Shown: one piece after another, positions 14,184 through 50,181 of the stretch
Position numbering within the stretch: the stretch's first letter is position 1
Layout: each line of letters starts with the position of its first letter
Source: Schmidtea nova
Lineage: Eukaryota
Direction: 5' to 3'
NCBI GenBank assembly: GCA_044892505.1
Contig: CM097883.1
Coordinates: forward strand, 93,868,001-93,932,000
DNA: 64,000 nt
The notes under the pieces: model-generated
Told to the model about the DNA's origin: nothing
Databases searched by the model: none
Seen by the model: the letters and a program-made list of their open reading frames with translations, nothing else
Program-made: the position numbers and the translations under genes

Positions 14184-14555
14184 CAAATTTTTGCCGCCCC
14201 GTTATTCGATGGAAAAATCAAATTGATCTACCCAATTAAATTCGGACTTTTTGTCAATTGATTTTTTTTCATTTTTTATTATTTTCTTAATTATTTTTAA
14301 AATTTATTTCTAATTTATTTTTTCCCGCCTTCTTTGCTACTGTGTTTTTCATCAGAAATCGTTATTTAATTCGTTTTATTTGATTTCTTTCATGTTTCTA
14401 TTTTTCTCTTCATTTTCATTTACTCGTTTTTCTTTTGTATAATTTATCTTTTAAATTTATTTAATTTGCTGTTCTTTTTTAATTTCTTTGATGTTTATAC
14501 CTAAACTTGGGGTAGTGTCAACCCAACATACATATTTATTCATTAGATAAACAAA

Positions 14556-26802: not shown

Positions 26803-28298
26803 TTGTTGATTTTGTAATAAAATCTCATTGATTGTAGTTTTGTCATTATTGTTCCTATTGTTGTCAATGTGCCTATTGGTTTCAATGTTCCTATTGTTGG
26901 TTGTTGTTGTTGTCGAAGCTTTTGAGTAAGCTGTATTAAAATTGTTTTTTAGAAGGCATATATTGAGTTAAATGATTATGGTGTTTATCATAAAACTCAA
27001 TATATGTCGAAGTATCAAGGGTTTGGCATACGGGGCACAGCATGTAAGTTATATTATTATATTTATAACTATAGTATTTTTCCATAATAACGTCACAGCC
27101 ATTACGGAAAATATTATTGCAAAAAGTTGGATATTTAGAACCTATAATATATATCATTAAAATATATTATTAATATCATTAATATCTTTATAACATAAAA
27201 AATAATAACAAAAGTATTTATTTTTTATATTATGAAAATATGAAAATATTTAAAAATTTGTCATAATAGTTTTCATAATAAATATAATTCATTAAAAAAT
27301 AATTCATGAGAATATTTCATAAGTATAATTCATAAGAGTTTTCATTATAAAACATTCTTCTTCATTATCTTCGTAATTTTTCATAATAAATCATTATCCT
27401 TCATTATCTTCGTAATTTTTTTTAAGAATATTTCATATGGATAATTCATTAACAATTAATTCATAAGAATATTTCATAAAATACTTAAAAATTTGTCATA
27501 AAAGTTTTCATTATAAATCAATATACTTCATAAGAATATTTCATATGGATAATTCATTAAATATTTAAAAAAAAATTTGTGATAAAAGTTTACATAAAAG
27601 TTTTCATTATAAAACATTCTTCGTAAATTTTTCATAATAATAAATCATTTTTCATTATCTTCATAATCTTCCTAATTTTCTTTTTTTAAAATTTTTTAAA
27701 TAACTTATTAAAAACTAACATTTTGACTTCTTGCACGCGAGATTGTGCACTGCATTGTTACCGGCATTAGAATAATTCTTAGCATTAGAATTCGTGGCAT
27801 TAGAATAATTCCCAACATTATAATTCGTGGCATTTAAATTAACTGAATAATAATAATAGTAATAGTTTCAAAATTATTATTAAAAGTTACCATTATTTCT
27901 AGTTCGGTTTTCGACAGCAGATATTTGTCCGGAAATATCTAAATTTTGTTGGGCCCACCAATTGGTCTAAAAAGACAAAAATATTGTACTAATTTAAACA
28001 ATAAATACAAATAATAACCACAAAAACATTCAAAAAACCTAAATTAAAAATCAAAATCAAAATAATAAATAATAATTACTAAATTTCCAGCAAAGGAAGA
28101 AAATCAAATTGACACGGGAACGAGCAGTATGGGGGTCTGAAATAAGAAAATTACAAATAAAATCAAATAAAAGTACAATTAATTGGTTAATTACTTGAAA
28201 AAATCGGGACCACCCAGCGACAAATCTGAACCGGAAATTTAAAATGGTTTATATTAAAATAAAATAACAAAATTACTTTGATGGACGGCCTGATCCTG

Positions 28299-28333
28299 AT
28301 TGGTCAATCTGACCAACTGGATCAGTATAAATA
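28299..28333 (+). promoter_or_regulatory. LTR promoter: inverted CCAAT and TATA box
   Basis: ATTGG at 28299-28303 and TATAAATA at 28326-28333; same motifs in the 3' LTR. Confidence 0.6.
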
Positions 28334-29237
28334 CCGATCCAAAAATCATACAGATAACACCTAAAATCTTAGCTACCGAACTGATCTATAACAGTCAGTT
28401 ACATCAACTTTGATACGACAAATATTGTGTAAAATTTCGGAAAACGCTACATCTTGGATTTAAAGAGTAAATTTTGTTGTATTGTATTTGAACTAATTTT
28501 ATGATATGTTTTACATGATTCCCATTTATTTCATTTCATTTAATATAATTTATTACTATTAATTGCTCTATTTTCTTATGCCATTATTTTATGATATGAT
28601 AAATATACTTCCTCAGTAGCTCACGCTGCGAGGGAGCAAGCCGTAAATGTGGGATTTCACCGTTCCACAAGATGGTGAGCAGAGTTTTATTGGTATTTTT
28701 ATTTAATTTTTAACTTTACGGTAGAGTTGTGCAGGGACAAGGACACGGGTAAAATTAGTAGACAGTGTTTAACATTAATTAATTAACATTCAATCAGACA
28801 GGAGAGAATAAACTACAGTACTAATTATCATGTCAACTAAGTCGATTTCGCATATGCACACGATTTTTTTTGAATCCACATAGCTGATCAAAATAATGTC
28901 CGGACACACCGAGACGATTTCGACATTTCAACGATAGTTTCAATTAAGATATAAATAACAACATAATCAGATCGACACTACTGATTGAATAAGTAAAACC
29001 GTAACCTGATCGCTGTAAATAGCGCAGGTGATAATATGTAAATTTTCAATAAACGTATCCCGATCGCTGTATATAGTGACGGTGTTAATTGAATAGCTTA
29101 GAAAATTATTTTTTTTGTTCCTCCTTTTCATATTTTTTTTTGTTTTGTTGATCAACGAGAGGAACACATTTCATCAGGTCTTACCAAAATTTGGGGATTA
29201 GTCACAGTAAATTTTATTAGCATTATTATTCTCTCAG

Positions 29238-29738
29238 ATGAAATCAACGATACTGGATGAATTTCTAACAACTCAACGTCATGTGGCACGGGTCGAAAAT
29301 CCTCTAATCCGGACGCAACGGAAGAAATTGAAGTCGCTTCCACAGGAACTTCTCAGAACGCTAAATGCGTTAATGTATAAATGGAGACGGGAACTAGGAA
29401 AGAAATGTCCGTTTTCGATTTGGGCCGGTGGATTAGATACCATCATATATCGTGGAGGCCCCGGATGGGAAATTCAGGACAAAAGAGACCGGGAGACGAC
29501 AGCTCCATTCATCATAGTGGTGACAGACCGCGAAGGAAATCCAACGACAGTGATCCATTGGGGATATGTCTCACCGCTCAAGTTGCTTCACTTTGGGTTG
29601 ATTCCGAACCACTTACCGAAAACGTGCCATGGACGCCCCAAACTAAACTGTTCGATGGCTCACATCCGACGAGATCCAGTCAATCACGGGTTGCATATTA
29701 CCCCCGTTCACGGCCTCAAGCGAAGCGTTTTCCACTAA
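29238..29738 (+). CDS. LTR-ORF1, 166-aa protein of unknown function
   Basis: ATG-initiated ORF in a GC-balanced island, directly after an acceptor-like TTATTCTCTCAG; identical in the 3' LTR. Confidence 0.5.
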   Translation: MKSTILDEFLTTQRHVARVENPLIRTQRKKLKSLPQELLRTLNALMYKWRRELGKKCPFSIWAGGLDTIIYRGGPGWEIQDKRDRETTAPFIIVVTDREGNPTTVIHWGYVSPLKLLHFGLIPNHLPKTCHGRPKLNCSMAHIRRDPVNHGLHITPVHGLKRSVFH

Positions 29739-29904
29739 ACATTATATTCACATTTGTATGAACTAAACTATTTCCATAAATTAAATGGTATTGATCTGTG
29801 TTTTGCCTGTTCTTAGTTAAATTTATTTCTATTTATTTAATCATATAATTTTTACACTCGACGGATAATATTAATCGTTGGTAACATAATGGCTGCATCA
29901 TAAA

Positions 29905-30513
29905 ATGGGTTTGTTATTTAGTATGACGGAAACTAGCCAACAGCGAGAATTGGATAAGGCGTGGAGAATCCGCCGAGCCTTAGAAAAGGAGCTAAATCAG
30001 GAAAAAGCATTACGAGCCAAGGCAGAAGCTCAGATTCAGTATTTACGGACCAGCTGGTTCGCCCCAGCCCGTATGAAGGAGCAGATGAGTCGGACAGAAA
30101 GGGCTCAAAAGACAGCTGACGATTATCGCACCGAATGGGAAGCAACAAAAATTGAGTTGCGCCGATGTCTCCATTCGGTGACGACTTCATTTATCGAGTC
30201 CGAATTGAAAGCACAAATCCGACCTATCACCTACCAGAAATGGGTAGGAGAACAGAAAGTGGCCTGCTCGGTCAGTACGGACACCGATGGGCTCGAGGCA
30301 ACAACAGTGCAGAGTCGGGTGGAAACCACCACTGTACTAAACCCCGTCGAAAAAACGAACAAGCGAAAACGAATCGGCTCCAAGCGCCGTCGCCAAAGAA
30401 AGCTGTTTTCTCAACAGTTGCAGACACAAGTAACCCCTATGGCAGAAATGTCGGAAGCCGAGTGGTTATCCGAGATATTCCCTCCTGAAGGAATTTTCAA
30501 AGAATTTCTGTAG
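29905..30513 (+). CDS. LTR-ORF2, 202-aa coiled-coil protein with Arg/Lys-rich NLS-like motif
   Basis: Heptad-like N-terminus and KRKRIGSKRRRQRK motif; a protein-level homologue in the solo LTR at 12022-12480 supports coding function. Confidence 0.7.
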   Translation: MGLLFSMTETSQQRELDKAWRIRRALEKELNQEKALRAKAEAQIQYLRTSWFAPARMKEQMSRTERAQKTADDYRTEWEATKIELRRCLHSVTTSFIESELKAQIRPITYQKWVGEQKVACSVSTDTDGLEATTVQSRVETTTVLNPVEKTNKRKRIGSKRRRQRKLFSQQLQTQVTPMAEMSEAEWLSEIFPPEGIFKEFL

Positions 30514-31006
30514 CAGATAGAATCATAATATGATGTCAGATTTTGGAGTTAATTAAATCTTTGCTCGTTTTTTTTTGTGTTGTTGATTCCTAGGTATTTC
30601 TTTCGATTACATAATTCATATAATTAAATTTAAATTACACGTCACACAAACGAAAGGAGTAGCGATAAAGGATTTAAATATTATCAAATTTGTAGTTTCG
30701 TTTTGCTTGTTTTTTTTTTGTTTTTATGGTAAATACATAGCCTCACACGCACGAAATAGAACAATAATTGCGTAAGTCCTTCTACGGCCGCGTGAACCCG
30801 TAAACATAAAGGGGGAGTAGTCCTAGCAATAGTGCTCACCTGCCCCTCATTGTTTAACCACCCTGCGCATCACCAACTTGGTTATCAAGGGAAATAATCA
30901 AGGGCGCTCGAGTGTAGCTTACGATTATTTATGCATGATCATGGATGGGAGATCCCTGGCAATCATTAGAATGTTTACTACACCGTCCATGAACCCAGCA
31001 TAAATT

Positions 31007-31024
31007 TGGGGGCTCAGCCGGGAT
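31007..31024 (+). other. Primer-binding site, tRNA-Pro type
   Basis: TGGGGGCTCAGCCGGGAT, 16/18 identical to the canonical MLV tRNA-Pro PBS TGGGGGCTCGTCCGGGAT; 6 nt after the LTR end. Confidence 0.85.
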
Positions 31025-31339: not shown

Positions 31340-31843
31340 ATGATAAAAACAACAAAGTTAAAACGATTATTTATTCAGCAAATGGAGGAAAAACTGAAAG
31401 AAATCGAAGAATTTCTCAACACAGAAAACGAAACATTAGCAACAATTGGCAAGAAAATAAACCGATTTAGAGAAATTGAATTTCAAGAACCCACAACACA
31501 GACCGAGGAAACAGATGAATTAATAAAGATAACAGAAAGAACAAGTAAAATCGACATAAAAACCCGCTACAAATGGTACCGAGCACGACTAGAGAATGCG
31601 GAGCTAAACATTAGATGCAGACAAATAGAACAACAATTAACCCCAACATACAAGCGAGGGAGGGCGCAAGGGGTAGAAGCAGCGAAAAAATACCGACAGT
31701 GCTATATATGTGAAAACAACGAGATACAAATTATGTTTTTACCTTGCGGACATTTCCGTTTTTGTAAGATCTGTGCCAACAAGCGTGACCGGTGTCCGAT
31801 GTGCAACTTTACTGTGAATGAAAAAATTATAGTTTATTTGTAA
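31340..31843 (+). CDS. Coiled-coil plus C-terminal IAP/MDM2-type C3HC4 RING protein (putative E3 ligase)
   Basis: CYICENNEIQIMFLPCGHFRFCKICANKRDRCPMCNFTVNEKIIVYL at the extreme C-terminus; no BIR repeat seen. Confidence 0.85.
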   Translation: MIKTTKLKRLFIQQMEEKLKEIEEFLNTENETLATIGKKINRFREIEFQEPTTQTEETDELIKITERTSKIDIKTRYKWYRARLENAELNIRCRQIEQQLTPTYKRGRAQGVEAAKKYRQCYICENNEIQIMFLPCGHFRFCKICANKRDRCPMCNFTVNEKIIVYL

Positions 31844-32567: not shown

Positions 32568-35500
32568 TTGAGAAAAGGAGCAAAGATTGTCGTAGTAAAG
32601 CCAACGGAAAAGAAAGTCGGCAGCAATATTAACAAAAAAGACAAAACTAGTACTACAACAAAAACAGTAAAAAAGCAGAAAGCCGGCAAAGATAACAACA
32701 AGAACCCACAAGGGAGTAAAGCGAGAAAAATAATAAGAGATAAATCGATTATCGAAAACGATAAATTGTCAGTAGTAAGCAACAGCTCAAGTAACAAAGA
32801 AAACCAAGCAGAACCCAAGGAGAACCAAACAAGTGAAATTGAAATCGACGAAACTAACAGCGATAATATCAAAGAAATAGAACCCGAGATAGAACAAGAA
32901 GGAGAAATCGACGAAACTAACAACGATAATATCGAAGAAGTAGAAAACGAGGTAGAACCAGAGGCAGAAATCAACGAGAGTGATAACGAAAGTATAATAT
33001 CGGATAACGAAATAATAAGAGAAACTGAAAGCGATTCAAGCTCGAGTGAAACAGAAGACGAACATAACAACGAACTAGAAACAAGAGGAAACGAAAGTAA
33101 AATAACTCAAGACAGCGGAATTGAAATGGGTGAACCAAGAGAAGAAATAAAGGATAAATTTTCAGGAGAACCGTTTAACGGAGATGCGAGTAAATTAGAA
33201 ACTTTTCTAAAGGAATTTGGCATATTTGTGGAAGTATGCAAGTGGAAAGCGGAAACAACAGTAAGCAGAATTCAGTTATATTTAAAAGATAGTGCATTGG
33301 ATTTATATTTGGAAGCGAAAAATAGTACCAATCCACCTGCAAATTGGACAGCGATAAAGGATTTTTTCCAACAAACATTTGGAATAAATAAAGTGCTAAG
33401 CGAGGCATTCATAGAATTTTCAATGAGGAAACAAAAGATGAATGAATCTAATGCGGTATACGCGAGTGAACTGAAAAAATTAGCAAAATCGGTATTCAAG
33501 GATGGAGGTCCAATAAACGAGGAGTTAATGGCAGCTATCTTCATAGGAGGACTAAGAAGACCCGACATAAGAGCGCAAGTGGGATGCCAAGGATGCAAGA
33601 CCATTGATCAAGCGTTAGAAACAGCTAACAGATTCGAATTGCATATGATAGGAAGTGAGGGCAGAATTTATTTAGCCATGGACACAGCACAAACCGAACC
33701 AGAGGTAAATCTCAACAATCACATTCCAAATTCGCAACAATTAAACCGACCACCCCCTCAACGAAGGAATGAAGGAAATAAAGTGCAGAACTTTGGAAAC
33801 CAAAACAATTACAACCCTCAAGGACAAACAAGACAATGTAAAACATGTGGAAAATTGGGACACTGGCAACAAGAATGCTATCAAAATTTGAATTGCGGAA
33901 AATGTGGAGTTAAAGGACACTCGGAGAGTAGATGTTCTACGATAATCTGTTTTAATTGTGGACGACCTGGTCACTACTCAAGAAATTGCGGACAAAAAAG
34001 TAATCAGCGAGGAAACTGGCAGAGTAATGGGAACCGACAAAACTACGGAAATCAAACAAATACCGTGAACCGACAAGATTATGGAAACCAACAAGTCAAT
34101 AATAACAATAGTCAGAACAAAACTACCACCAAAGAAATACATTTGATGCAAGAAGTTCAAAGATTGACGGAACTTATAAACAATACGACGAGAGGAAATC
34201 CGCAAACCAATCAACAGCAAATTAGCATGATGAGAAAAATAGAAAGCGAAAACGAACGATTGAATCGAGAAAGTCAAGCACGACACGCTCAGGAATGGGC
34301 AAGAATACAAAGAGAGGATGAACAAAAACAGCAAGAAAGAGAGCGACAACCTCTAAGAATTAATATGCTAAGAGCAACAAACCAAACAGACACTCGCGAG
34401 AAAGAAACCACACTGGAAATGAATTCGATAGACCCGAATCCAGCCGACAACGAAAGTCGAAAAGAGACAGTACAAAAAGATGAAGAAGTAGAAAAAGAAA
34501 TAAAAAAGGAAGGGGAAACTGAGATAAACCAGGAAGAGAGAAGGGAGATTTGGAAAAGAGGAATGATGGTAATCATGCCCAACAAATCCGTGTTTAGATT
34601 CCAGTATAACGTAAAAGAAGAAGTGGGAATATTATTCAACAAAGTAAACCAGATGGTTCCAGGAGTAACGAAACTGCCCAGAGAAGCGTTTCTACAAATA
34701 GAAGGTGCGCCAAAAGTAAGGTTGGAATTAACGGATATATGGGAAAACTTGGGAGTAGTAGAAACAAAAAGAAACGTGATGATTATTAAAGAAATAGAAC
34801 CAGAAGAAATTCCACCACCAATACGTCACGAAACCCGAATCAGGCGAATATTTGAAGGGAAAATGATAAGAAGACGTTTAAAAGAGATAGACGAGTTGGG
34901 AAAGAAAATGAAAAAAGTCGAAGTAATAGAGGACAAAAATGAACAAACACCAGAAATTAGCAAAAACAAAACAAAACCAACGGAGAATATACAAGGGGAA
35001 ACGAACCAAACAGCACATATTAATATGTTAAGAAATACCACCAGAGAGTTCTCCGATGAAGAAGAAGATAGTGATATCAGTAGCCTAGCAGGAGACATAT
35101 TAAATGAATCCGAAGACGAAAATAAAGAGAGAGAAGTAATAAAGACCTCAGAACCTATACAGATAAAAGTAGATGAAATCCAGAAATTACTAGATAACTC
35201 GCTAGAAGTAATATATAACGAAGAGTTCATGGACAAGAAACAATACCGGAAATTCATGAAAGCATTATTACAAATGAACTACAAAGAATGGTTACAAGAC
35301 CGGGAAGTAGACATGTTAAACCGATACGTAGGGAAATTAATAGAGGAACCACTCCTCAATTACACCATCTCAATAATAATAAATACATCAACATCAAGAA
35401 TCTGGATCAAAACTCCATTCACAGACGATATCTACAGATGGGTAGAGGACAGGCTAGGGAGCTCATATAAAAACAAATTCATTTTCTCGCAGAATAGACT

Positions 35501-38500
35501 CGTAAAGAAAAGAACACACCTAGTAGAAACCGGTATATGGCCAGGAGAAATAACCCTGTTATCAATATGTGATGAAAAGGAAGAAGAGAACCTACAAGAA
35601 GTTGCAAAGGAAGCAAACACGTGTTTCGAAAGGAGAATAAAACCTCGGTTAGAATACGAGAAAGAACGAGTCTTACGAAAGAATCTAAATTCCCTGATAG
35701 AACAAATCATACCACAAGTCAAAAAACATAGAAAAGAGTTAATGAGAAGCGAATACGAGAAATTGAAACGATGTATTGAGTGCATACGTGACACAAGTCA
35801 CACGAGATGGTCACAGATCTCACACGACAAATTAATCGCAAAAATGGGAAAAACAATGTTTAGACAAGGGAAAATAACGGATCTAAAAATTTCAGTAGAA
35901 TTGCCTAATGAAGACACCAAAGAAATTGAAGTGGTAGCGGATTGCACCATTAAAGAATTAATAAATGTCATTAACGAGACACTAGTGCAAAGAGAACCAG
36001 AAGACGAATGGGAAGACGACATAATCATACAATACAACGAACATGTATTATGGGATCACGATGAGAGACGACTATATAAAATCGGTATATGGGATAATCA
36101 CCAAACCATCCACGTTATCAGAATGGACGATACACCCAGAGAAACTGCTAAAGATGAGAAAAGAGAACGGGAACGACGGAAAGAAGTTGTGCGCAAATTA
36201 CAACAAATAGTAGAAATTTATCGAAATTGGCGAATTTGGCCAGAGTGGGAAAATGTATTAGAAGAACTCAATCTCAACAGACGAATACGAACACCCGTAG
36301 AAAAACAATGGAACGAGAAAGGAAAATGTTGGGAACCAAAAGAAGGGGAATATGAAGAAGAATATGAAAGAGGAATGGAAGATGACTGCGAACCAGAAAT
36401 GAGAAGGGTTTGCATGGTGACAAGGAAAGCTACGCCAATAGACCTAGATGGACCAGAAACAGCGGCTATATGGTTAGAAAAGGAAAAGCAAAAAACGGAA
36501 GAATTTGTCGAAATATTAAAAACTAATGCGCACGGTAAGAGAAAAGTAATAAAAGGTCTCGCAGATTTTTTCGTGGTTAATGGAGAAGATATAACATGCT
36601 TGCGTAAAGTGGCAAAAGCAATCGCAGAATATAAAAGAGTCAACGAATGGTGTCCGGAACAACTAGACCACGTAATTAGGAAATGGAGGAATCAAGAATT
36701 CTCGCAAGAAATTCCACAAAAAGTACATTTAAGAATAATATACCCAAACAAGGATAAGGAAGAATTTTGGGTAGGAATAGCAGAAAAAATTCGAGATATT
36801 AAAAAGAAATTGAGATACGAACCACCATTCCATTTACAACACCAAGGACGAACATTAGATAACAGTTTGGAAATTGGAATAACGCCAGCACAACTAGATC
36901 TCATGAATACCTTAACAGTGGAAGCAATAGCGGGTCAACCATTGAAACGTAAAGAAGAAAACCATAAACCACACGGAAGTATAAGTACGCCGAGCCCGAT
37001 GAAATCAGTATTAACGCCAGGAACAAGTTCAAGACGATCTGAGACAACACCCAGAGGGAATAGAGAAAGGACTCCACCACAACCATATGACGTGGACGAA
37101 ATATTAACAGACAGCGACGACATGATAGAAGAGCTAACCGAATTAACAAAGGAAAAAGACGGCAACATTTTCGAAAGGATACAAGAACTACCTACGACAA
37201 TACAAGTAACTAACACCGGAGAAACAGAAGTCGAACAAGAGATAATAATAGAAGAAGTAAACGATTTGACAGAAGATGAAATAAGAGGAGTGAATGTCGA
37301 AAATGTACAATTAACCCAGGAAATGGAAAGATGGTTAGAAGAAAGAGCTAATGAACCAAGAGATGTCACAGAAGAAACCGGACGAGCAACAAGGTTTGTG
37401 GAAACAGGTACAGGAATGGATAGACGACCTCGAGGTAGACCCAAGACAGATCCAGCAAATATAGTCATCAGAAATAAGGATGAAAAGAGACAAGATCAAT
37501 GGGAATTATGCTTAAGGAAACTAAATAAAATTGCGGAGATAAAAGAAAAAGAAACAACACCAATATGTCAAGGGGAGGAATGGATATCGAAAACAATAAT
37601 GGAAATATTGGCAATAATTGATCCAGAATTGAGAAAATACTGGCGGATAACTGAGATAAGCGAAAAGGCAAAGTCATTACACAGCGCAATTGCACCCATC
37701 TTACCAGAATTCATAAAAGAAAAGACGAAATCAAATCACTTAGACTGGCAAGGAACCACTATGTTAATAAAGAAATTGACAGAAGGAGCGGAAACGGATA
37801 ACAAATATGTAATAGCCATTGCATATACGATCTACAATCTGTTGACACTGAGTAGAGGTCGACCAAAACCCACTGCATTAGAGAGACATATAAAAAATAC
37901 CGCAAAGATTATAGCTAGAGAAATAGAACCTTACGTCATTAACAAAGGAGGATGGGAAACATTTATAAAAACTAACCAGAAGAAAACACAAGCCAAGAAT
38001 ATGAAAAAGAAATTCGAAAAAATATTGGAAGAGTTAGAAAAGGAACAAACAGGAACAGGAAACGCAAAGTCATCAATGAATCTGAGTTCTATAATAATGA
38101 TGATGTTGATATGGATGATTAGCACCGATAGCGCAACAGCATTCGAAGTGTTTGATTGCGACCAAATGAAGTTAGGAGAAAAGTATTCATTGAGAGGTAC
38201 GGAGCAATGCAAAGATGCAACTCCAGTAGAGTTGCAAAAGATTAAAAAGGAACAATGGTACCACGTGTATCAAGAAGCAGAACTCATAAAGACAATGGTG
38301 AATGAATGTAAGGTGCAGAAAACGAGATTCGCATTCTACTGCGGGAGAGGACATTATTCAGCAATTGTCATGCCAGGAACGGAAAGAGAACCAATCGTGT
38401 TACAAGGAGAAGACTGCGAAGCACTGTTTAAACATGGAGAAGTAACAACAAGAGACAAAATCAAGATAAGAGGAAAGCCAGGAATGATGCTGCAACAAAC

Positions 38501-39005
38501 CTACTATGTAGCAGGACGGATTACGGGAGGAGAAGGATATTGTCAAGGAGAAACCTACCCGATGTTCGGAACACTCGCAACCAACTTAGTGGTGATGGAT
38601 ACGTATATAGTCGAACTAAAAAGCTATGAAGCATTCTTCGAACCAACAACGGGAGAAATGAAAACGTTATCCATGTGTAAAATCGACAGGAGCATGTGTC
38701 AAACGGGAATGTCAACATTAGTATACAAACCAAAGGTGAACGAATGTCAATTACAACTGCTACAAGGAGCACAGTTCGACGAAATTCAAGGAAAAACGTT
38801 CCAGGAAGAAGACGATGACGACAAAGCTAGAGCAAAGCATCTCAAGGAAGCTTTGGAGAATAAAAGACAACTGAAACCAGATCAGCGAGAAAAAAGGATA
38901 GAGATGAGAGCCACACCAACAGTGTTGATAACCACAAATCAGGATGTGGGAATGAGATTCATAAAAGGGAAAGCAACCCTTAAGTGTAGTACAACGGTAT
39001 ACTAA
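32568..39005 (+). CDS. gag: Gag - accessory domains - N-terminal part of envelope glycoprotein polyprotein (first in-frame ATG at 33126)
   Basis: Gag capsid-like EPFNGDASKLETFLKEF...; three CX2CX4HX4C knuckles (33837-33989); ubiquitin-like segments; PRGRPK AT-hook; Bcl-2-like helical domain ending NKGGWETF; internal signal peptide (38076-38141) followed by the FEVFDC glycoprotein start. Confidence 0.9.
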   Translation: MRKGAKIVVVKPTEKKVGSNINKKDKTSTTTKTVKKQKAGKDNNKNPQGSKARKIIRDKSIIENDKLSVVSNSSSNKENQAEPKENQTSEIEIDETNSDNIKEIEPEIEQEGEIDETNNDNIEEVENEVEPEAEINESDNESIISDNEIIRETESDSSSSETEDEHNNELETRGNESKITQDSGIEMGEPREEIKDKFSGEPFNGDASKLETFLKEFGIFVEVCKWKAETTVSRIQLYLKDSALDLYLEAKNSTNPPANWTAIKDFFQQTFGINKVLSEAFIEFSMRKQKMNESNAVYASELKKLAKSVFKDGGPINEELMAAIFIGGLRRPDIRAQVGCQGCKTIDQALETANRFELHMIGSEGRIYLAMDTAQTEPEVNLNNHIPNSQQLNRPPPQRRNEGNKVQNFGNQNNYNPQGQTRQCKTCGKLGHWQQECYQNLNCGKCGVKGHSESRCSTIICFNCGRPGHYSRNCGQKSNQRGNWQSNGNRQNYGNQTNTVNRQDYGNQQVNNNNSQNKTTTKEIHLMQEVQRLTELINNTTRGNPQTNQQQISMMRKIESENERLNRESQARHAQEWARIQREDEQKQQERERQPLRINMLRATNQTDTREKETTLEMNSIDPNPADNESRKETVQKDEEVEKEIKKEGETEINQEERREIWKRGMMVIMPNKSVFRFQYNVKEEVGILFNKVNQMVPGVTKLPREAFLQIEGAPKVRLELTDIWENLGVVETKRNVMIIKEIEPEEIPPPIRHETRIRRIFEGKMIRRRLKEIDELGKKMKKVEVIEDKNEQTPEISKNKTKPTENIQGETNQTAHINMLRNTTREFSDEEEDSDISSLAGDILNESEDENKEREVIKTSEPIQIKVDEIQKLLDNSLEVIYNEEFMDKKQYRKFMKALLQMNYKEWLQDREVDMLNRYVGKLIEEPLLNYTISIIINTSTSRIWIKTPFTDDIYRWVEDRLGSSYKNKFIFSQNRLVKKRTHLVETGIWPGEITLLSICDEKEEENLQEVAKEANTCFERRIKPRLEYEKERVLRKNLNSLIEQIIPQVKKHRKELMRSEYEKLKRCIECIRDTSHTRWSQISHDKLIAKMGKTMFRQGKITDLKISVELPNEDTKEIEVVADCTIKELINVINETLVQREPEDEWEDDIIIQYNEHVLWDHDERRLYKIGIWDNHQTIHVIRMDDTPRETAKDEKRERERRKEVVRKLQQIVEIYRNWRIWPEWENVLEELNLNRRIRTPVEKQWNEKGKCWEPKEGEYEEEYERGMEDDCEPEMRRVCMVTRKATPIDLDGPETAAIWLEKEKQKTEEFVEILKTNAHGKRKVIKGLADFFVVNGEDITCLRKVAKAIAEYKRVNEWCPEQLDHVIRKWRNQEFSQEIPQKVHLRIIYPNKDKEEFWVGIAEKIRDIKKKLRYEPPFHLQHQGRTLDNSLEIGITPAQLDLMNTLTVEAIAGQPLKRKEENHKPHGSISTPSPMKSVLTPGTSSRRSETTPRGNRERTPPQPYDVDEILTDSDDMIEELTELTKEKDGNIFERIQELPTTIQVTNTGETEVEQEIIIEEVNDLTEDEIRGVNVENVQLTQEMERWLEERANEPRDVTEETGRATRFVETGTGMDRRPRGRPKTDPANIVIRNKDEKRQDQWELCLRKLNKIAEIKEKETTPICQGEEWISKTIMEILAIIDPELRKYWRITEISEKAKSLHSAIAPILPEFIKEKTKSNHLDWQGTTMLIKKLTEGAETDNKYVIAIAYTIYNLLTLSRGRPKPTALERHIKNTAKIIAREIEPYVINKGGWETFIKTNQKKTQAKNMKKKFEKILEELEKEQTGTGNAKSSMNLSSIIMMMLIWMISTDSATAFEVFDCDQMKLGEKYSLRGTEQCKDATPVELQKIKKEQWYHVYQEAELIKTMVNECKVQKTRFAFYCGRGHYSAIVMPGTEREPIVLQGEDCEALFKHGEVTTRDKIKIRGKPGMMLQQTYYVAGRITGGEGYCQGETYPMFGTLATNLVVMDTYIVELKSYEAFFEPTTGEMKTLSMCKIDRSMCQTGMSTLVYKPKVNECQLQLLQGAQFDEIQGKTFQEEDDDDKARAKHLKEALENKRQLKPDQREKRIEMRATPTVLITTNQDVGMRFIKGKATLKCSTTVY

Positions 39006-40460
39006 ACGAATTATCCAGGAATATATGTGTCAAAACAAGAAGTGCCAAATGCGAAACCCAAAATCGACACAATGGATATCAAACTATACCTGTATGTGAA
39101 TAATAAAATGGATTTCCTATTCCATAGAGGACAAGCCTCATTACAAAAAGTGTACTACGATCTGATAAACAATGATTGTATACTGAATCGAGAAATATTA
39201 AAGACAAAGTTGGCCGTAGCGATTACGAATCCAGATAGCGCGATGCCATTATTACCACTGAGAGAAGGACATTTCGGAAGAGTGGTTGGAGAAGCCATGT
39301 ATGTATACATTTGTGAAAAGACACACGCGCCGCTAGCAGCAACAACGCAATTGAAACCTGGAACCTGTACAAATGAGTTAGAAATCGATTATAAAGGAAA
39401 AGTACGATACGTTCAACCGGTGACGAGAATCATCAATCCACCAGGGTTTGAACCAAATCCATTCAACTGTAGTAATGCGTACGGACCGCTTTATCAGAAA
39501 CCAGATGGTAAATGGGTTATGTTCCCAGGAAGATCCGAAGTGATAGCACCAAGAGAATTCGAGCTAATGCAGTTGTCAAAGGATAGGCAATTCAGCGACG
39601 TAGATGTCTCAAACAACGGAATATATAGTCCAAAGGATTTAGAAGCAGCAAGGCAGAATATATTATTCCCTGCGAGAAGAGAAGCATTACTGTCGAATAT
39701 CGTAACGATAACGGGAGGAACGGATTATCGAGAAGGACCGAATTATGAACTATTGTTGTCACCAGCACATTTCAAGAAAGCCACAGAAAATATGATGAAA
39801 GCAATGTGGGGAAGATTTCTGATATTCGGACAAATGATGGCCGGAATACTGGGGGTCATATTAATAATCCAAATCGTCAGAGTGATAATAACGCAAATGC
39901 TCGCGTGTTTTGACATCTACAAGAGAGAAAAGAAAGTGAATTGGAAAATGGTAGTAGGGTTTTTACCATTCCTCGCGAAGACGATGGTGTTGCATGGACA
40001 CTCAAAGGACATACATCGAATAAAGAGATTGTTGAAGATACTCGCAAAAATGAAGGGAACAGATGAAGAAGTAGGACGAAAATTTAAAAAGATAATGAAT
40101 GACGAACAAGCAAGACAACAGCTCAAGAGAGAAAGAAAAGGTTTATGGGAGAGGATGAAAGGATATAAAACCCAAAATGATTCGAGTGACGACGATGATG
40201 ACGATGACGACTATAAGGGAGGACAAGTCTATAAGAACCAAGCACCCCAATACATTGAAAAGAATCCAGCCGACGCGTGGAAATGTTACGCACCTCCACC
40301 AACCATGTATCAAGAACCACTACAAGGAGGAAGAACGACAACAATGCAAATGATGCCAATGACAAATGTATACCCCATGATACCAGAAGATTATAAAATG
40401 AGAAGATGTAGAAGCGTAGATCCACAAGGAGATACACACACGATCGCAGTAATGTCATAA
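39006..40460 (+). CDS. env: C-terminal half of chuvirus-like (gB-type, class III) envelope glycoprotein, in frame after a single TAA
   Basis: LYVNNKMDFL...YYDLINNDCILNREIL, GRVVGEAMYVYIC, CTNELEI...VQPVTRII, TM FLIFGQMMAGILGVILII and a cytoplasmic tail; the frame is continuous from 39006. Confidence 0.85.
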   Translation, partial: TNYPGIYVSKQEVPNAKPKIDTMDIKLYLYVNNKMDFLFHRGQASLQKVYYDLINNDCILNREILKTKLAVAITNPDSAMPLLPLREGHFGRVVGEAMYVYICEKTHAPLAATTQLKPGTCTNELEIDYKGKVRYVQPVTRIINPPGFEPNPFNCSNAYGPLYQKPDGKWVMFPGRSEVIAPREFELMQLSKDRQFSDVDVSNNGIYSPKDLEAARQNILFPARREALLSNIVTITGGTDYREGPNYELLLSPAHFKKATENMMKAMWGRFLIFGQMMAGILGVILIIQIVRVIITQMLACFDIYKREKKVNWKMVVGFLPFLAKTMVLHGHSKDIHRIKRLLKILAKMKGTDEEVGRKFKKIMNDEQARQQLKRERKGLWERMKGYKTQNDSSDDDDDDDDYKGGQVYKNQAPQYIEKNPADAWKCYAPPPTMYQEPLQGGRTTTMQMMPMTNVYPMIPEDYKMRRCRSVDPQGDTHTIAVMS

Positions 40461-40517
40461 AACACAGGTCCAGTATTAACCACGACAATAGAGATTAACG
40501 GAAGAGAAATCGAAGCA

Positions 40518-43500
40518 ATGATCGACACTGGAGCAAATATTTCCGCCATCGATATCAAATGGATACCACAAGAGCAAAGACGGGAAATAGAAAGGACAAA
40601 CGTCCATGTAATTGCATGTAGCAAAGAAGTTGTAGAAGTAGCAGGAAGATGGTGGGTAAAAATACGCCATTTAAATACAGAAATCGATACGTACGTAGCA
40701 GTCATACCAGCATTAAGCGTACCTTGCATTATCGGAACAGATTTGATGCCAGCGTTATTTAAAGAAATCGTAATCGATCTCGGAACAATGAGATTAAAAG
40801 ATCGCACCGGACAAATATGCGCAATAGAAGCCAAAGTGACAAGCTCAAAGCAAATGATAATACCCGCAAGAAAGGAAAAAATATGTTACGTAAAAATAGA
40901 TCCGACAATCCAAGGCGATATGATTTTCGAACCAAGTAAGAGATTCGAGAAAAGAAAAGCGTTGCCAATGGCAAGAGGACTAGTCAACATAAACGATAAT
41001 GGGGAAATCCCAATAAACGTAGTAAATTTCGACGAGGAGGATAAAATAATCTACGAAAACGAAAGACTAGGTAAACTAACCCCAATGATGGATATCGAAA
41101 TACCAATAGAAGGGGCAGAGAAAGATAAAGAACCAACCTGGAATATTGATAGTGAATTATTAAATGAGGACCAAAAGAAGCAGCTAGAAAAACTTCTGAT
41201 AGAGTATAAGGACATATTTGCAGCATCCGATTTAGATCTAGGAACATGTGATGTCACACTACATACGATACCATTAACAGATGACACACCAATTGCATTA
41301 AGGCCGTACAAATTAGCAGAAGCACAGAAAGCAGTAGCAGAAGCAGAAGTGAAGAAAATGTTGGATGCGGAAGTAATCGAACCAAGTTGCTCACCCTGGC
41401 AATTTCCAGTGGTAATGGTAAAGAAGAAAGACGGAACACAGAGATTCTGCATAGATTATCGAAGGTTGAATACGGTAACAAAACGAGACACTTACCCATT
41501 ACCGGACATCAACGAAATGCTACTAACACTACAAGGAGCAGCATATTTTACGTCGTTAGATCTAAAAAGCGGATATTGGCAAATAAAAATGAAGGAAGAA
41601 GATAAAGAGAAAACTGCCTTTACCATCGGTAGAGACCTATATCAATTTCGAAAGATGCCATTTGGATTAACGAACGCACCAGCATCATTTCAGAGATGCA
41701 TGAATTTCGTCACCCATGGAATAAAGCAGTGTATGGTCTACATAGACGACTTATTAATTTATTCTAGCACGTTTGAACAACACATACAAGATATTCGAGA
41801 TGTATTCGTTAGACTTAGACAATGGAAGTTAAAACTCAAGCCATCCAAGTGTGATTGGGCGAAAGAAAAGGTTACATTTTTAGGACATATAGTGTCAGCA
41901 AAAGGAAAAGAACCGGATCCTAGAAATATCGACAAAGTAAAAGAATGCCCAGTACCAAAAACAATAACCCAAATACAAGAATTTCTCGGACTATGTGGAT
42001 ATTATAGAAAGTTTATAAAAGATTACGCCGGAATAGCAAAACCTATACAAGAGCTGGTAAAGAAAGATGTATCATTCATATGGGGAGACGAACAGCAAAC
42101 AGCTTTCGAGACATTAAGAGATAAACTGATAACCGCACCCATATTGGTACACCCAGACTTCAAGAAGCCATTCCTACTTGCAACGGATGCAAGCGGATAT
42201 GCAGCAGGAGCAGTATTAGGACAATACGATGATGAAGGAAAAGAACGGGTAATCGGATATTATAGCCGGACATTCAAAAAGCATGAGAAAAACTACTCAG
42301 TAACCGAGCGAGAAGCATTAGCGATTATATTAGCGATTAAACATTTTAAATATTTATTATGGGGACACATCATCTGCATAACAACAGATCACCAACCGCT
42401 TGTATGGTTAGGACAGCATAAGGAAACATCCAGTAGATTAATGCGATGGGCAATGCAGTTACAGGAGTACTCACCAGACATAAAATTTAAATCAGGAAGA
42501 GCGAATGCGAATGCAGACTGTATGTCAAGACTGACATTCCCGGAATTAACCGACCCGGATGTACAACGAATTTGCGTATTAATAGCAGAAGATTTGGATT
42601 TTAGTGAATTAAAGAAAGATCAGCAGGAAGACAAAGAATTAGGACAGATCATAGAATTCCTAACATCTCGAAACATGGAAGTATTCAAAGAGAACAAGGA
42701 ATTAAAGGAACATATAGGAAAATATCAACATCGCTACATAATAAATAAAGGATGGTTGTTAATACAAGACGGGGAAAAGAGATTGATGTGCTTACCGGAA
42801 AACAGAAGGAAAGAGATAATGATCCAATACCATGATGGGAAATTAGGAGGGCATATGTCCGAGAAAAAGACAATAAATCGTATGAGACAAAAATATTATT
42901 GGCGAACAATGGAAGAAGATATCAAAGGATGGATTAAAAATTGTCTAACTTGCGCAACCGGAAAGGATAGTGGGAAGAAATGGAAAAACCTACTACAACC
43001 AATGCCGATACCAGCAGAGCCAATGACAACTATAGCAATGGACGTAATAGGGCCATTACCAGAAAGTCTAAACGGAAATATTTATATATTGGTAATAACG
43101 GATTACCTGACAAAATTCCCGGAAGCATTTGCCATGCAAGATCAAAAAGCAAAAACCGTAGCAAAAATTTTGGTAGAAGAAATATGTTGCAGATACGGAA
43201 CTCCAAAACAAATACTCACAGACCAAGGAACTAACTTTATGAGTGAGTTATTAGACGAGGTGACAAACTATTTCAGAATAGCAAAATTGAGTACTTCACC
43301 ATATCACCCACACACGAATGGACAAACAGAGAGATTCAACGGCACATTGATTAGAATGTTATCCAACTATGTCAGCAGACACCAAACTGATTGGGACGAA
43401 TACATAAAATTATGTTTAATGGCATACCGAATGTCGATACATGCAGCAACAAAACTAAGCCCGTTTCAACTTATGTATGGAAGAGAATGCAACATGCCCA

Positions 43501-46478
43501 TAGATTTAGAGTATCAACCACCATTATCGCAATATATGGAAGACGACGACTACGTAACCAAATTCAAAGAAAGAATGCAGGAAATATGGAAAACGGCAGA
43601 ACTCAACATTAAATTTTATCAGGAAAGTTATAAGGATTTACACGACCAGAAGAAAAATGTTAAAGCAAACGACCTAAAACCAGGAGATTGGGTGATAATA
43701 GAAACTCCCGAAATAATACCAGGAACGGTTAAGAAACTCCAAAGACCTGGAAGAGGACCTTATGAAATTATATACAAAAAGGACAATAATGTCAAAGTTA
43801 AGCTAGTAAATCGACCGTTAATACGATCCATATATGTAAACACATGCAGATGTAAGAAAGTGCCTAAAACAATAACTACAACACCAGAAAATCGAATAAT
43901 AACCAGATCACAAACAGCCAGGATAAATATGCTCAGAGCAAACACAACCGAAGACGACAAAGCAGAAACAAGGCATAAGGAAATCAGAAATAAAGAAATC
44001 GTATTGAAAGCAAGAGAGGTAATGGGAAGATGGCATGCCAGAGACGAAGCAAACATATTAAAAGATATACGATGGATAATTAGCGACTACGCACAAGGAC
44101 TACCAACGAAACCAATTATTTCTGAGTTGTTAGGAAAAATCCCTGAAATACTTTTATTAGAGGATGTAGGGGGACAACCCGCCTTACACAATGCGGTAAA
44201 GTGTGGAAACATAGAAAGAGCAACGGAATTCCTAAAAATTGCAAAAGAAACCAATCAACACCTAGGTTTCGGGAATCGCGAACAAGAAACCCCACTAATG
44301 ATAGCGGCAATTTACCAAGCAAACAAGGAAATGATAGACCTTTTGATAAAGGCCCGTTTCAACTGGACAGAACGAGATAGGGAAGATAAAACAGTCTTAA
44401 ATCACGTAATATGGAGTTCACACCAACTAATGCTGAAACATATAATCGCAAACGCCACATGGGAAATAGACGAATTAATAAAAGGAGACATTATCAAAGA
44501 AGCAATCAAAATTGGTAAGTGCAACACGATCCGTAAGTTAATCAAATGGAAACGACCAGAAGATGATACATGGGTTTTAGACATAAACGAAGTATACAGC
44601 GAAGGACAAAACGCACTGTTAAGATACCTTGTGAAATTTACTTGCGATCAAAAGACATTACTAACCTTATTAGACAGAGGAAACATAAACATCACAAAGA
44701 ATGAAGAAGAACACAAATTCGATAAAGAAAAAGGGGCCTTATTCAACAAGATTAGGAAATGGTGTGCGAAACCACTTGATAAACTAATAACATACAAAGA
44801 CATAAACAATTTTAACGAGAAATACCAGACGATAGTAAATGAGTATGATGAACTAGTAAAAATCCTAAACCACCCCGAAAAATGCAAACAGGTTTTGGAG
44901 AAAAAAGAAAGAGAAAGTAACAAGAAACTCACACCACTCTTCAAAGCAGAAGCACCATACCAAGCTAGACTAGATGCGATACAAGAAAAAGCAAAAGAAT
45001 TGTTACCGGAATTCGAGAATAGTAAACATGCACTGGAAATACTCGGCGCATTAGTTGAAAAAGTACACGCATACGCAAAAGGAACATACAATAGTAACGA
45101 CATAACGACTATAAAAAAGGAGATGCCAGTAACATTTTTACTACCAAAGGACGGAATAATGCCCATACATAGAGCTTTACGAAATGGCAAAGATAGAAAA
45201 GTAATGGAAATCGCAAGAGTAATGTTAAATTGCGGAAGCAACATGAATATGATAGACGAGAAAGGAGATACACTTATGGTATTTGCAGCAAGGGCTAAAA
45301 CGAAAACAAAGGTGTTGGAAGAACTATACAAAGCAGGTGCAGGACTTACAGGAAAGACAGATAAAGATAATTCAATTTTGGATGTAGCATTACTAACACA
45401 TAATTGGGAAATGGTCAACTTCATTAAAACAATCGCAAATCAGGAAGAAATAGATTACCTAACTGATACGGTTAAGAAACCCAGTGTACTAACAATGATG
45501 CATAATGTCGAACTAACAGAAGCAATACTTACGTGGATAAATCCGAATACTAACGAACCAGCATTCAGGATTAATGAGTTTACAGAACATAACCAAAACT
45601 GGTGTATAAGAAGTGCCTTAATAACGTATAAATGGCCAGAGATATTGAAGATGTTTATGGAAAGAAAGGATATAAGAATCACAAACAATCCGAAAGAAGA
45701 GAAATACACAGGCAAATGGAAAGAATTAATGAAGACATACATCAACAACTGGATCAAGGCCAAAAAGGAAATTGTGGAATATAAATCCACCAACAAAGTA
45801 ATACCGGAGCACTTAGAAACACAAGAATTTGAGGCAAGTAATCTAACGACATTAGCATATGCAAAATTGATAGAAGAAATCAATGTCGAGGACGACATTT
45901 TCAACGAGCCAGGGGGAGATGACAATACAGATAGTGACGACGGTAACAACTCAGAAAATTCAAACGATCACGAACCACCCGATAAAGAGGAAAACGAGAA
46001 AAAAGACAAGAAACGAGTCAAAGAAGAAAAGAAAAATGAAGACGAAAAACAAAGAAATGAAGAGGGAGAACAAAGAGACCAAGGAATTAAAAATGACACC
46101 CAAAGAACAGGTTATAAATCAACCATAAAACCATTCTTCAAACCAGAATTACTATTATTAACAGTGATTTTAACGTTAATTAACCCAAGTCAAGGAATGA
46201 CATGTGAAGAAAGGGCAATAATACAAATAAAAAACGCAAAAGGAATCGAACGAGTATGTTGGTCGAAAAAGGACAAAATCACGGAACAAAATAGCCCGAT
46301 GGATTGCAGAATCTCAAAACACGAGCAAGAGATCATAGAGATCAATGACTTAGATCTAAATACCTGGTACAAAATATGCACCGTTAGAAAACAAAAGCAT
46401 CCAAGATCACACAACACAATCGCATGTGCAAAATACCAAACACCTAAAGCAGCCATGACAATACAACAGTCACCCTAA
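40518..46478 (+). CDS. pol: Pol polyprotein (PR-RT-RNase H-IN) extended by ankyrin repeats and a signal peptide/FN3-like module; frame open from 40461
   Basis: IDTGANISAI protease; CIDYRRLN, MPFGLTNAP and YIDD (41739-41750) RT; TDASG...TDHQPL RNase H; HHCC, TDQGTNF, TERFN and GPY integrase; GQPALHNAV, ETPLMIAA, GIMPIHRAL and GDTLMVFAA ankyrin motifs. Confidence 0.95.
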   Translation: MIDTGANISAIDIKWIPQEQRREIERTNVHVIACSKEVVEVAGRWWVKIRHLNTEIDTYVAVIPALSVPCIIGTDLMPALFKEIVIDLGTMRLKDRTGQICAIEAKVTSSKQMIIPARKEKICYVKIDPTIQGDMIFEPSKRFEKRKALPMARGLVNINDNGEIPINVVNFDEEDKIIYENERLGKLTPMMDIEIPIEGAEKDKEPTWNIDSELLNEDQKKQLEKLLIEYKDIFAASDLDLGTCDVTLHTIPLTDDTPIALRPYKLAEAQKAVAEAEVKKMLDAEVIEPSCSPWQFPVVMVKKKDGTQRFCIDYRRLNTVTKRDTYPLPDINEMLLTLQGAAYFTSLDLKSGYWQIKMKEEDKEKTAFTIGRDLYQFRKMPFGLTNAPASFQRCMNFVTHGIKQCMVYIDDLLIYSSTFEQHIQDIRDVFVRLRQWKLKLKPSKCDWAKEKVTFLGHIVSAKGKEPDPRNIDKVKECPVPKTITQIQEFLGLCGYYRKFIKDYAGIAKPIQELVKKDVSFIWGDEQQTAFETLRDKLITAPILVHPDFKKPFLLATDASGYAAGAVLGQYDDEGKERVIGYYSRTFKKHEKNYSVTEREALAIILAIKHFKYLLWGHIICITTDHQPLVWLGQHKETSSRLMRWAMQLQEYSPDIKFKSGRANANADCMSRLTFPELTDPDVQRICVLIAEDLDFSELKKDQQEDKELGQIIEFLTSRNMEVFKENKELKEHIGKYQHRYIINKGWLLIQDGEKRLMCLPENRRKEIMIQYHDGKLGGHMSEKKTINRMRQKYYWRTMEEDIKGWIKNCLTCATGKDSGKKWKNLLQPMPIPAEPMTTIAMDVIGPLPESLNGNIYILVITDYLTKFPEAFAMQDQKAKTVAKILVEEICCRYGTPKQILTDQGTNFMSELLDEVTNYFRIAKLSTSPYHPHTNGQTERFNGTLIRMLSNYVSRHQTDWDEYIKLCLMAYRMSIHAATKLSPFQLMYGRECNMPIDLEYQPPLSQYMEDDDYVTKFKERMQEIWKTAELNIKFYQESYKDLHDQKKNVKANDLKPGDWVIIETPEIIPGTVKKLQRPGRGPYEIIYKKDNNVKVKLVNRPLIRSIYVNTCRCKKVPKTITTTPENRIITRSQTARINMLRANTTEDDKAETRHKEIRNKEIVLKAREVMGRWHARDEANILKDIRWIISDYAQGLPTKPIISELLGKIPEILLLEDVGGQPALHNAVKCGNIERATEFLKIAKETNQHLGFGNREQETPLMIAAIYQANKEMIDLLIKARFNWTERDREDKTVLNHVIWSSHQLMLKHIIANATWEIDELIKGDIIKEAIKIGKCNTIRKLIKWKRPEDDTWVLDINEVYSEGQNALLRYLVKFTCDQKTLLTLLDRGNINITKNEEEHKFDKEKGALFNKIRKWCAKPLDKLITYKDINNFNEKYQTIVNEYDELVKILNHPEKCKQVLEKKERESNKKLTPLFKAEAPYQARLDAIQEKAKELLPEFENSKHALEILGALVEKVHAYAKGTYNSNDITTIKKEMPVTFLLPKDGIMPIHRALRNGKDRKVMEIARVMLNCGSNMNMIDEKGDTLMVFAARAKTKTKVLEELYKAGAGLTGKTDKDNSILDVALLTHNWEMVNFIKTIANQEEIDYLTDTVKKPSVLTMMHNVELTEAILTWINPNTNEPAFRINEFTEHNQNWCIRSALITYKWPEILKMFMERKDIRITNNPKEEKYTGKWKELMKTYINNWIKAKKEIVEYKSTNKVIPEHLETQEFEASNLTTLAYAKLIEEINVEDDIFNEPGGDDNTDSDDGNNSENSNDHEPPDKEENEKKDKKRVKEEKKNEDEKQRNEEGEQRDQGIKNDTQRTGYKSTIKPFFKPELLLLTVILTLINPSQGMTCEERAIIQIKNAKGIERVCWSKKDKITEQNSPMDCRISKHEQEIIEINDLDLNTWYKICTVRKQKHPRSHNTIACAKYQTPKAAMTIQQSP

Positions 46479-50089: not shown

Positions 50090-50181
50090 ATAAATAAAGC
50101 GGAAAACTGTAAATATGTAAAAATAAAAACAAGAAAAACCAAAAATAAATGACAGGTCGAATGTATATATTATTGTAGAAA

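Follow-up and report, generated by a model that had tools for sequence, protein, structure and literature searches.

Two genes under purifying selection lie inside the long terminal repeats of a giant retrotransposon of Schmidtea nova

The window that we analysed, a stretch of 64,000 nucleotides of Schmidtea nova DNA (contig CM097883.1), contains a giant retroelement of 28.7 kb with an internal region of 22.6 kb. The two long terminal repeats (LTRs) of the element are 99.9% identical, differing by one substitution and two one-base indels, and ATTT is found at both ends of the element, in the outer flanks. Each of these 3-kb LTRs holds two open reading frames (ORF1 and ORF2), as a preliminary description of this DNA had stated, and the encoded proteins are identical between the two LTRs. 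The coordinates of the features are summarized in Table 1.

Table 1. Features of the window, in positions of the 64,000-nucleotide stretch.
Feature	Position	Strand	Basis or remark
Old solo LTR, family C, 2,869 bp	11660..14528	-	TGTA target duplication, TG...CA ends
Broken ORF2 homologue in solo LTR	12121..12477	-	stops at 12345 and 12318
Broken ORF1 homologue in solo LTR	about 13510-13056	-	one stop and one frameshift
5' LTR, family A, 3,054 bp	27947..31000	+	LTR self-match
Predicted promoter: CCAAT box 28299, TATA box 28326-28333	28299..28333	+	LTR positions 353 and 380
Predicted non-coding exon 1, donor GT 28467-28468	28355..28468	+	conserved donor-like sequence
Twin RNA hairpin, predicted first intron	28608..28678	+	z -4.4 on + strand, -0.4 on - strand
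Bulged stem-loop, copy 1	29006..29030	+	2-nt bulge, 4-bp covarying stem, GUANAU loop
Bulged stem-loop, copy 2	29060..29085	+	
ORF1, 166 aa	29238..29738	+	AG acceptor directly before ATG
Candidate poly(A) site after ORF1	29780..29815	+	ATTAAA and GU-rich tract
ORF2, 196 aa	29923..30513	+	AG acceptor 1 nt before ATG
Candidate poly(A) site after ORF2	30552..30590	+	ATTAAA and U/GU-rich tract
Primer-binding site	31007..31024	+	same motif 3' of 5' LTR in A', B, E and F
RING-finger accessory ORF	31382..31843	+	acceptor 3 nt before ATG
Gag, mononegavirus-type fusion protein, protease/RT/RNase H/integrase, ankyrin polyprotein region	33126..49607	+	
Four 3' accessory ORFs, including TRAF-like protein (50182-51558)	49733..53373	+	AG 2-3 nt before each ATG
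Purine-tract-like motif 5' of 3' LTR	53572..53591	+	same motif in B and F elements
3' LTR	53592..56643	+	carries ORF1 54882-55382 and ORF2 55567-56157

The primer-binding site is probably tRNA-Pro-like. A tRNA gene search returned no tRNA gene. The polyprotein region is split in the window into four frames, with breaks near 39005, 40460 and 46478, and is unbroken in a related copy as one frame of 5,488 aa. A mononegavirus-type env domain (PF24664) is positioned between the zinc knuckle and the protease, and the Pfam domains follow the order protease, reverse transcriptase (RT), RNase H, integrase. The size, this domain order, the location of env within the polyprotein and the ankyrin, TRAF and RING cargo fit a Burro-like giant Ty3/gypsy element. 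The planarian Burro/GYPSM1 elements are described as gypsy-like, near 30 kb in size and encoding Gag-Env-Pol in one polyprotein of about 5,000 aa; they resemble the window element in the fusion protein of mononegavirus type that separates gag from pol, in their cargo of ankyrin, TRAF/MATH and RING domains, and in having accessory ORFs (PMC6431247). The window element differs from Burro in that TRAF is a separate downstream ORF. Searches for BIR, BCL2-like, SUMO-like and dUTPase-like motifs gave no Pfam match at E 0.01 in the element; some motifs of this set are reported in Burro as detected only by HHpred (PMC6431247). The polyprotein ends in a 988-aa frame (46641-49607) with repeated Cys/Trp modules, hydrophobic segments and a weak Fn3-like match.

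The preliminary description had also proposed that ORF2 aligns with a decayed ORF in a distant solo LTR. The local alignment score is 92, compared with 28.6 +/- 4.5 for shuffled sequences, and in each of three shuffling schemes none of 5,000 shuffles reached it. Without the basic tail, the helical core of ORF2 still scores 81, which was not reached by any of 5,000 shuffles under two schemes. The match therefore stands (tblastn E 7e-6 within the window), but the decayed ORF, previously placed at 12022-12480, corresponds to a minus-strand frame at 12130-12462 that is interrupted by two stops (Table 1). The surrounding DNA has indeed diverged, the coding parts of the LTRs having no DNA match (best 45 nt, E 0.02), and the assignment as a solo LTR is borne out by TG...CA ends like those of family B (families are defined below), by TGTA on both sides and by the lack of an adjoining primer site or purine tract. 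The ORF1 homologue of the solo LTR matches ORF1 of family B with E 1.5e-25. Its direct similarity to ORF1 of the window element is weak (score 43, reached by 20 of 2,000 shuffles), and the link between the two passes through intermediate families. Among the family C loci read, we found no full-length element with this LTR type; the nearest full elements belong to family B (ORF2 38% identical, same termini). A second, more decayed LTR-like fragment on the minus strand at about 1550-2500 contains ORF1- and ORF2-like remnants (E 8e-8 to ORF1 of family B).

We searched the genome with the ORF1 or ORF2 proteins of several families, including ORF1 of the old family; the counts obtained are 'at least' values. 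Among the matches listed, ORF2 is present in six LTR families, which we call A (the family in the window), A', B, C (the old family of the solo LTR), E and F, and ORF1 is present in five, being absent from family F. ORF2 is 25-61% identical between families and gag 52-97% among the five families with gag; the LTR ORFs diverge faster than gag. The non-redundant real copies, 37 of ORF1 and 42 of ORF2, form coherent alignments. We read complete elements of A', B (three) and F, and family E was tied to the primer site, RING and gag at one locus. RT, RNase H and integrase are missing from two of the three B elements and from the one F element read, all of which retain gag, env, ankyrin, TRAF and LTR ORFs. 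In the one RT-less B element that was scanned the protease is fused to ankyrin; a pol-bearing B element also exists.

ORF1 and ORF2 are under purifying selection. We calculated dN/dS, a check that the preliminary description had suggested, with a pairwise transition-weighted Nei-Gojobori method on real copies, pooled with near-identical copies collapsed; the pairs are not independent. Among the matches listed, 44 of 49 rows were used for A, 33 of 46 for A', 37 of 49 for B, 24 of 29 for E and 29 of 33 for F, and 12 and 10 of the 24 loci listed, with the window copy, for C. In all six families the ratio is far below 1, overall 0.12-0.5. Across divergence bins in family A it is 0.26-0.52 for ORF1 and 0.12-0.20 for ORF2. 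The corresponding values are 0.15-0.26 for both ORFs in A', 0.17-0.30 (ORF1) and 0.17-0.24 (ORF2) in B, and 0.28-0.41 (ORF1) and 0.13-0.25 (ORF2) in E, with 0.84 in a one-pair bin; ORF2 of family F has 0.16, and pooled ORF2 of A, A' and B spans 0.12-0.26. Shifted-frame controls gave 1.07-4.6, with 0.44 in the one-pair bin of family E. Values above 1 in shifted frames also rule out the overlapping frames 29381-29761 and 30165-30488 as genes. Picking a family by the similarity of one ORF lowers dN of that ORF; the value for the other ORF is less biased, and it too is well below 1. Two signals in ORF1 of family A run counter to constraint, namely shared frameshifts in the last eight codons and dN near dS across the first 25 codons.

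The selection acts during replication of the elements and not on settled solo LTRs, since it is seen in variants shared by at least two copies (pN/pS 0.12-0.31) and far less in single-copy variants (0.37-1.18), among which most stop codons are found. The two classes differ in all ten family-ORF tests (Fisher p 7e-3 to 3e-19). Both ORFs are open in 12 of 15 solo LTRs of A and A', which were defined by target duplication in a sample picked via one ORF. The earlier suggestion that solo LTRs would scatter the ORFs across the genome is thus retained as far as carriage of the two-gene cassette is concerned; a role for the scattered solos is not supported, since single-copy variants are near neutrality and include stops, and the solo LTR in the window is broken in both ORFs. 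The private ORF2 changes of this solo (10 synonymous, 6 non-synonymous and 2 stops) do not look neutral, although the numbers are small. Selection is steady in every lineage, RT-less forms included, which suggests that mainly the copy that encodes the proteins, or the cell that harbours it, profits from them; this argues against a freely shared, family-wide factor.

The LTR has the features of a predicted transcription unit. The promoter boxes are nearly invariant among 20 A copies and 90% identical to those of A', and transcription is predicted to start at about 28355. The ORFs occupy LTR positions 1,292-2,567, downstream of the TATA box, with RNA structure of the plus strand between. The predicted exon 1 region (28355-28600) is far more variable among copies than the promoter, with an abrupt transition at the predicted start. 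A GT donor-like site lies about 140 nt past the TATA box in A, A', B, F and two of three clean C rows; it reads GTAA in the A subtypes shown and in A' (24 of 24 loci), GTAAGT in seven of eight B rows and CAG/GTATGG in F. In 14 of 28 A loci an automatic donor scan stopped at a GTGG further upstream; in the alignment these loci have GTAA a few bases on. At the other end of the predicted intron, an AG precedes the start codon in every family A copy among the matches listed (ORF1 47/47, ORF2 48/48). The counts for ORF1 and ORF2 are 45/45 and 45/45 in A', 32/32 and 38/45 in B, and 25/25 and 28/28 in E, with 29/29 in F; the dinucleotides neighbouring the AG are kept at only 0.41-0.94. In family B the acceptors lie 12-14 nt before the ATGs, and one B ORF has no acceptor within 40 nt. 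In the window element, a YAG lies no more than 3 nt ahead of the start codon in all seven accessory ORFs, compared with 14% of 314 background ATGs, and gag has a YAG 10 nt before its ATG. ORF2 probably starts at its second ATG (29923), where its homologues start; the ATG at 29905 is ruled out because the acceptor is downstream of it.

These signals suggest that exon 1 is likely joined to alternative terminal exons, and that both LTR genes are likely expressed by alternative splicing from the promoter of the LTR itself. We also considered spliced-leader trans-splicing, but the conserved donor makes cis-splicing the simpler explanation. The hexamer that trails ORF2 is present in 27 of 27 distinct A and 21 of 21 distinct A' copies among the matches listed, and since AT-rich DNA makes hexamers common, such poly(A)-like motifs are weak evidence. 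Four sequencing runs of unrecorded kind covered all 30 bins, with no joint at the predicted splice sites among the joints listed, which indicates nothing either way. In family B LTRs, 5 of 14 loci checked have a GC-rich box and a TATA-like motif about 45 nt upstream of the ORF1 acceptor, possibly an internal promoter.

If the predicted start is right, R and U5 together span about 2.6 kb and hold both genes, and any LTR, solos too, would hold a promoter, an exon, the genes and a poly(A) signal. The preliminary description had compared the ORFs to the LTR-overlapping genes sag, nef and bel of complex retroviruses. Foamy virus bel is a coding sequence located in the LTR and expressed from spliced RNA. 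MMTV sag and rem and HIV nef are likewise described as LTR coding sequence, expressed from spliced RNA and read from the 3' LTR (PMC12789967). The positional analogy is not supported: those genes lie in U3 (PMC12789967), whereas the ORFs described here are downstream of the TATA box and, with the start site as predicted, in R/U5. Retroviral R is given as 15-250 nt (PMC12789967). The window proteins also differ from Sag and from FAST-like fusogens in lacking a membrane segment; the maximal 19-residue hydropathy is 1.11 among the 42 ORF2 proteins and 1.23 among the 37 ORF1 proteins.

A predicted model of ORF2 (pLDDT 81, pTM 0.36) consists of long helices (residues 3-115), a disordered linker, a Lys/Arg-rich helix at about 147-162 and short acidic-hydrophobic tail helices. 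The basic motif noted in the preliminary description, with 11 Lys/Arg in 20 residues, is aligned in all six families. The acidic-hydrophobic tail is present in A, A', E and F, and ORF2 of family B has no acidic tail. The CRM1-type leucine-rich pattern of export signals is absent from ORF2 of A, A' and F and found C-terminal to the basic motif in 4 of 42 ORF2 proteins; non-classical export signals fall outside this pattern. Pfam matches of ORF2 to REV (3 of 42, E 0.004 or weaker; the two that were located fall on the helical part and not on the basic motif) and to bZIP_1 (1 of 42, a family E protein, E 1.7e-4) were rejected as under the cut-off, as were sub-threshold matches of ORF1 to Flexi_CP_N in one to three members. 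The order of segments in ORF2 is not that of bZIP proteins, the helices being N-terminal to the basic region. ORF1 is modelled with low confidence (pLDDT 57) as a helix with a small sheet, and would be an alpha/beta protein of no known family. Fold searches gave a best Z of 2.9 for this low-confidence ORF1 model, BFVD E values above 0.1, and no match for ORF2. Sequence homologues outside the genome were not found in alignments, a 5.8-billion set, an atlas at 0.9, PDB sequences, phages and viral contigs; one match to a bacterial repeat protein was rejected as helical-repeat chance. An internal accessory control protein was likewise unmatched, so these blanks say little. The linker of family E ORF2 contains a conserved GVQTD word, which presumably resembles the binding motifs of dynein light chain LC8.

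Two kinds of RNA hairpin lie in the predicted intron. The twin hairpin has counterparts in A', B and C, with two-sided changes in 2 of 24, 4 of 37 and 8 of 37 pairs; these are related copies, and the events are not independent. It resembles the foamy-virus dumbbell pri-miRNA cassette, which is made by Pol III from the LTR U3 (PMC7693620), in lying in the LTR and in being followed by a U-run in A' and B. It differs in being downstream of the TATA box, in its short first hairpin and in the inconstancy of the U-run. An Rfam search gave no match. The second kind is a bulged hairpin that, among the matches listed, lies just upstream of the first acceptor in two copies in A (55 of 58 loci), in three in F (30 of 31) and in up to four in A' (four in 41 of 54). 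Although the search pattern makes no demand on the upper stem, 386 of 403 instances pair there at all four positions and the other 17 at three of four, with 18 distinct stems showing compensatory and G-U pairs. Within the 64 kb the bulged hairpin occurs only in the two LTRs, on the plus strand, compared with 0.007 per shuffled LTR. This putative RNA element, covarying and repeated two to four times in the predicted intron, is new here. Among the loci listed it is absent from all 48 of B and all 59 of C, though both families have ORF2, and present in 1 of 30 of E (F-type copies, probably nested). Family F lacks ORF1, and its one element that was read also lacks RT and integrase, yet the family has three bulged hairpins and an ORF2 under selection. 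Its predicted intron also contains three near-identical perfect hairpins.

We compared 11 A and 10 A' elements segment by segment. Gag, RT, integrase and TRAF differ by about 5% between A and A', the same as within each type, and their trees intermix. The LTRs are far apart: the difference between the types is 30% in U3, 52% in ORF1, 40% in ORF2, 12% in the core promoter and 17% at the LTR end, with synonymous sites of the LTR ORFs saturated. Within types the LTRs differ by 2-8%, in narrow ranges, and at segment level there is no mosaic among the 21 LTRs; linkage to the LTR type weakens across RING and the last 3' ORF. Two deeply diverged LTR types thus share one recombining gag-pol pool, which is also new here. 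An exchange of R/U5 alone is ruled out, since U3 is likewise 30% apart. Either diverged LTRs fail to template-switch, or proteins and sites must match. The idea of a family-wide regulator is not supported: ORF2 proteins are specific to their families, at the identities given above, and each is inherited together with its own LTR as one block.

We tentatively hypothesize that ORF2 is a nuclear regulator of its own element's RNA that acts through its basic helix, a reading that we hold at somewhat less than even confidence. A short non-coding exon 1 would be joined to ORF1, ORF2 or one of the other accessory ORFs; each of these would have a poly(A) site of its own, and the default products would be short mRNAs. 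As the splice and poly(A) sites precede gag, the full-length RNA for Gag-Env-Pol and packaging must escape them. The long helices of ORF2 would let it form oligomers, and its Lys/Arg-rich helix would bind the hairpins repeated in the intron, which only unspliced RNA would retain. Binding would shift the balance to full-length RNA, a logic like that of Rev/Rex, from which Tat-like read-through is not separable. ORF1 would be a second, dispensable accessory protein, and solo LTRs would keep the cassette for a time and then decay. Several observations weigh against this reading. The acidic tail is absent from ORF2 of B, and the acceptor layout is blurred by the YAG before gag and by the looser spacing in B. 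The hairpins may instead serve Gag as packaging signals or bind a host protein, the bulged hairpin is missing from the ORF2-bearing families B and C, the CRM1-type export pattern is lacking in A, A' and F, and the LTR block may persist merely because diverged LTRs cannot template-switch.

Both proteins might instead act on the host cell (on silencing, the cell cycle or apoptosis) in the manner of the RING, TRAF and ankyrin cargo, the basic motif being a mere nuclear import signal and the LTR a capture site. We consider this unlikely, although the layout with an acceptor before the ATG is the same as in the host-derived cargo ORFs and the rapid divergence relative to gag fits it. Burro cargo has been proposed to meddle with apoptosis and ubiquitination (PMC6431247), and Burro is described as a PIWI target (PMC8532177). 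However, no likeness to host or viral proteins was found, the repeated intronic hairpins are left unexplained, and motif spacing and small residues are, in our judgement, kept beyond what a plain import signal needs.

Rather unlikely, too, is a role of ORF2 as a DNA-binding or cofactor-recruiting activator of its own LTR promoter, like Tas or Tax, in which the basic helix would contact DNA and the acidic tail would serve for activation. The basic helix with an acidic-hydrophobic tail in A, A', E and F, the bZIP match of one E protein and the inheritance of U3 and ORFs as one block are all compatible with such an activator. Yet the helices precede the basic region across a disordered linker, the reverse of bZIP, and the single match is one among 42 proteins; moreover, ORF2 of family B does without the acidic tail, and the core promoters of A, A' and F are almost identical though their ORF2s are only 40-61% identical. 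A structural or RNA-packaging component of the particle, as a matrix or nucleocapsid helper, would also account for long helices with a basic patch and for retention of ORF2 in RT-less forms that keep gag and env; it is very improbable, as ORF2s with only 61% identity share a Gag pool that is 97% identical and Gag has zinc knuckles of its own. The possibility that the ORFs have no function and are open only because they were copied recently has practically nothing left in its favour: the near-identity of the window LTRs makes identity alone uninformative, but it is refuted by a dN/dS that stays far below 1 in all six families, by values above 1 in shifted frames and by the invariant acceptors.

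The tentative reading of ORF2 as an RNA regulator has parallels in known systems. Rev-like systems work with a small nuclear protein that is basic and with structured sites repeated in an intron (PMC3856414). ORF2 shares with Rev, Rex, Rem and Rej a small, here predicted, spliced gene, an Arg/Lys-rich segment, predicted oligomerising helices and, as a candidate, structured RNA in the predicted intron (PMC3856414); it is unlike them in having no sequence homology and, in A, A' and F, no CRM1-type pattern, and because of this result on the export signal we do not file it as a member of the Rev group. In the Drosophila MDG1 group, two small ORFs under selection precede gag, with alternative poly(A) after the first and one nuclear product (PMC11952523). 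These sORF1 and sORF2 are described as upstream of gag and not in the LTR, on unspliced transcripts, with a membrane sORF2 (PMC11952523), whereas the window ORFs are inside both LTRs, with acceptors and without membrane segments. In its section on these elements, the Burro account names no LTR-internal genes, splicing programme or RNA elements, unlike what is found or predicted here (PMC6431247). In the literature on ORFs inside the LTRs of retrotransposons and of Burro we found this arrangement nowhere; the primary description of Burro may draw LTR ORFs. The type of element is already known, and for genes inside the LTRs of Burro or other retrotransposons we found no description.

LTRs are usually treated as non-coding control regions, and here they contain two genes under selection. 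If the start site is right, reverse transcription would first copy a stretch of about 2.6 kb, and each solo LTR would amount to a complete gene unit; if ORF2 binds the hairpins, a retrotransposon would possess a circuit like those of Rev and Tat, in which both the protein and its 25-nt target are named. We speculate that an invertebrate Ty3/gypsy lineage independently evolved a cognate pair of regulator and RNA element in a giant R/U5, with the LTR as an exchangeable two-gene switch expressed from hundreds of solos, a proposal that goes further and is doubtful. The presence of two LTR types on one gag-pol pool means that an RT-based classification misses the main difference between the families.

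Elsewhere in the window, fragments of B-family DNA polymerases (a polymerase class, not LTR family B) are located at 24548-26119 (minus strand) and 62702-63982, with DNA 65% alike, and an unrelated gypsy-like pol at 57844-62094 (minus strand). A broken hAT transposase (15205-17073) and a RING ORF (21463-21903) are both on the minus strand. Two short transposase-like fragments lie at 4116-4400 and, recognised by eye, at 10082-10471 (minus strand).
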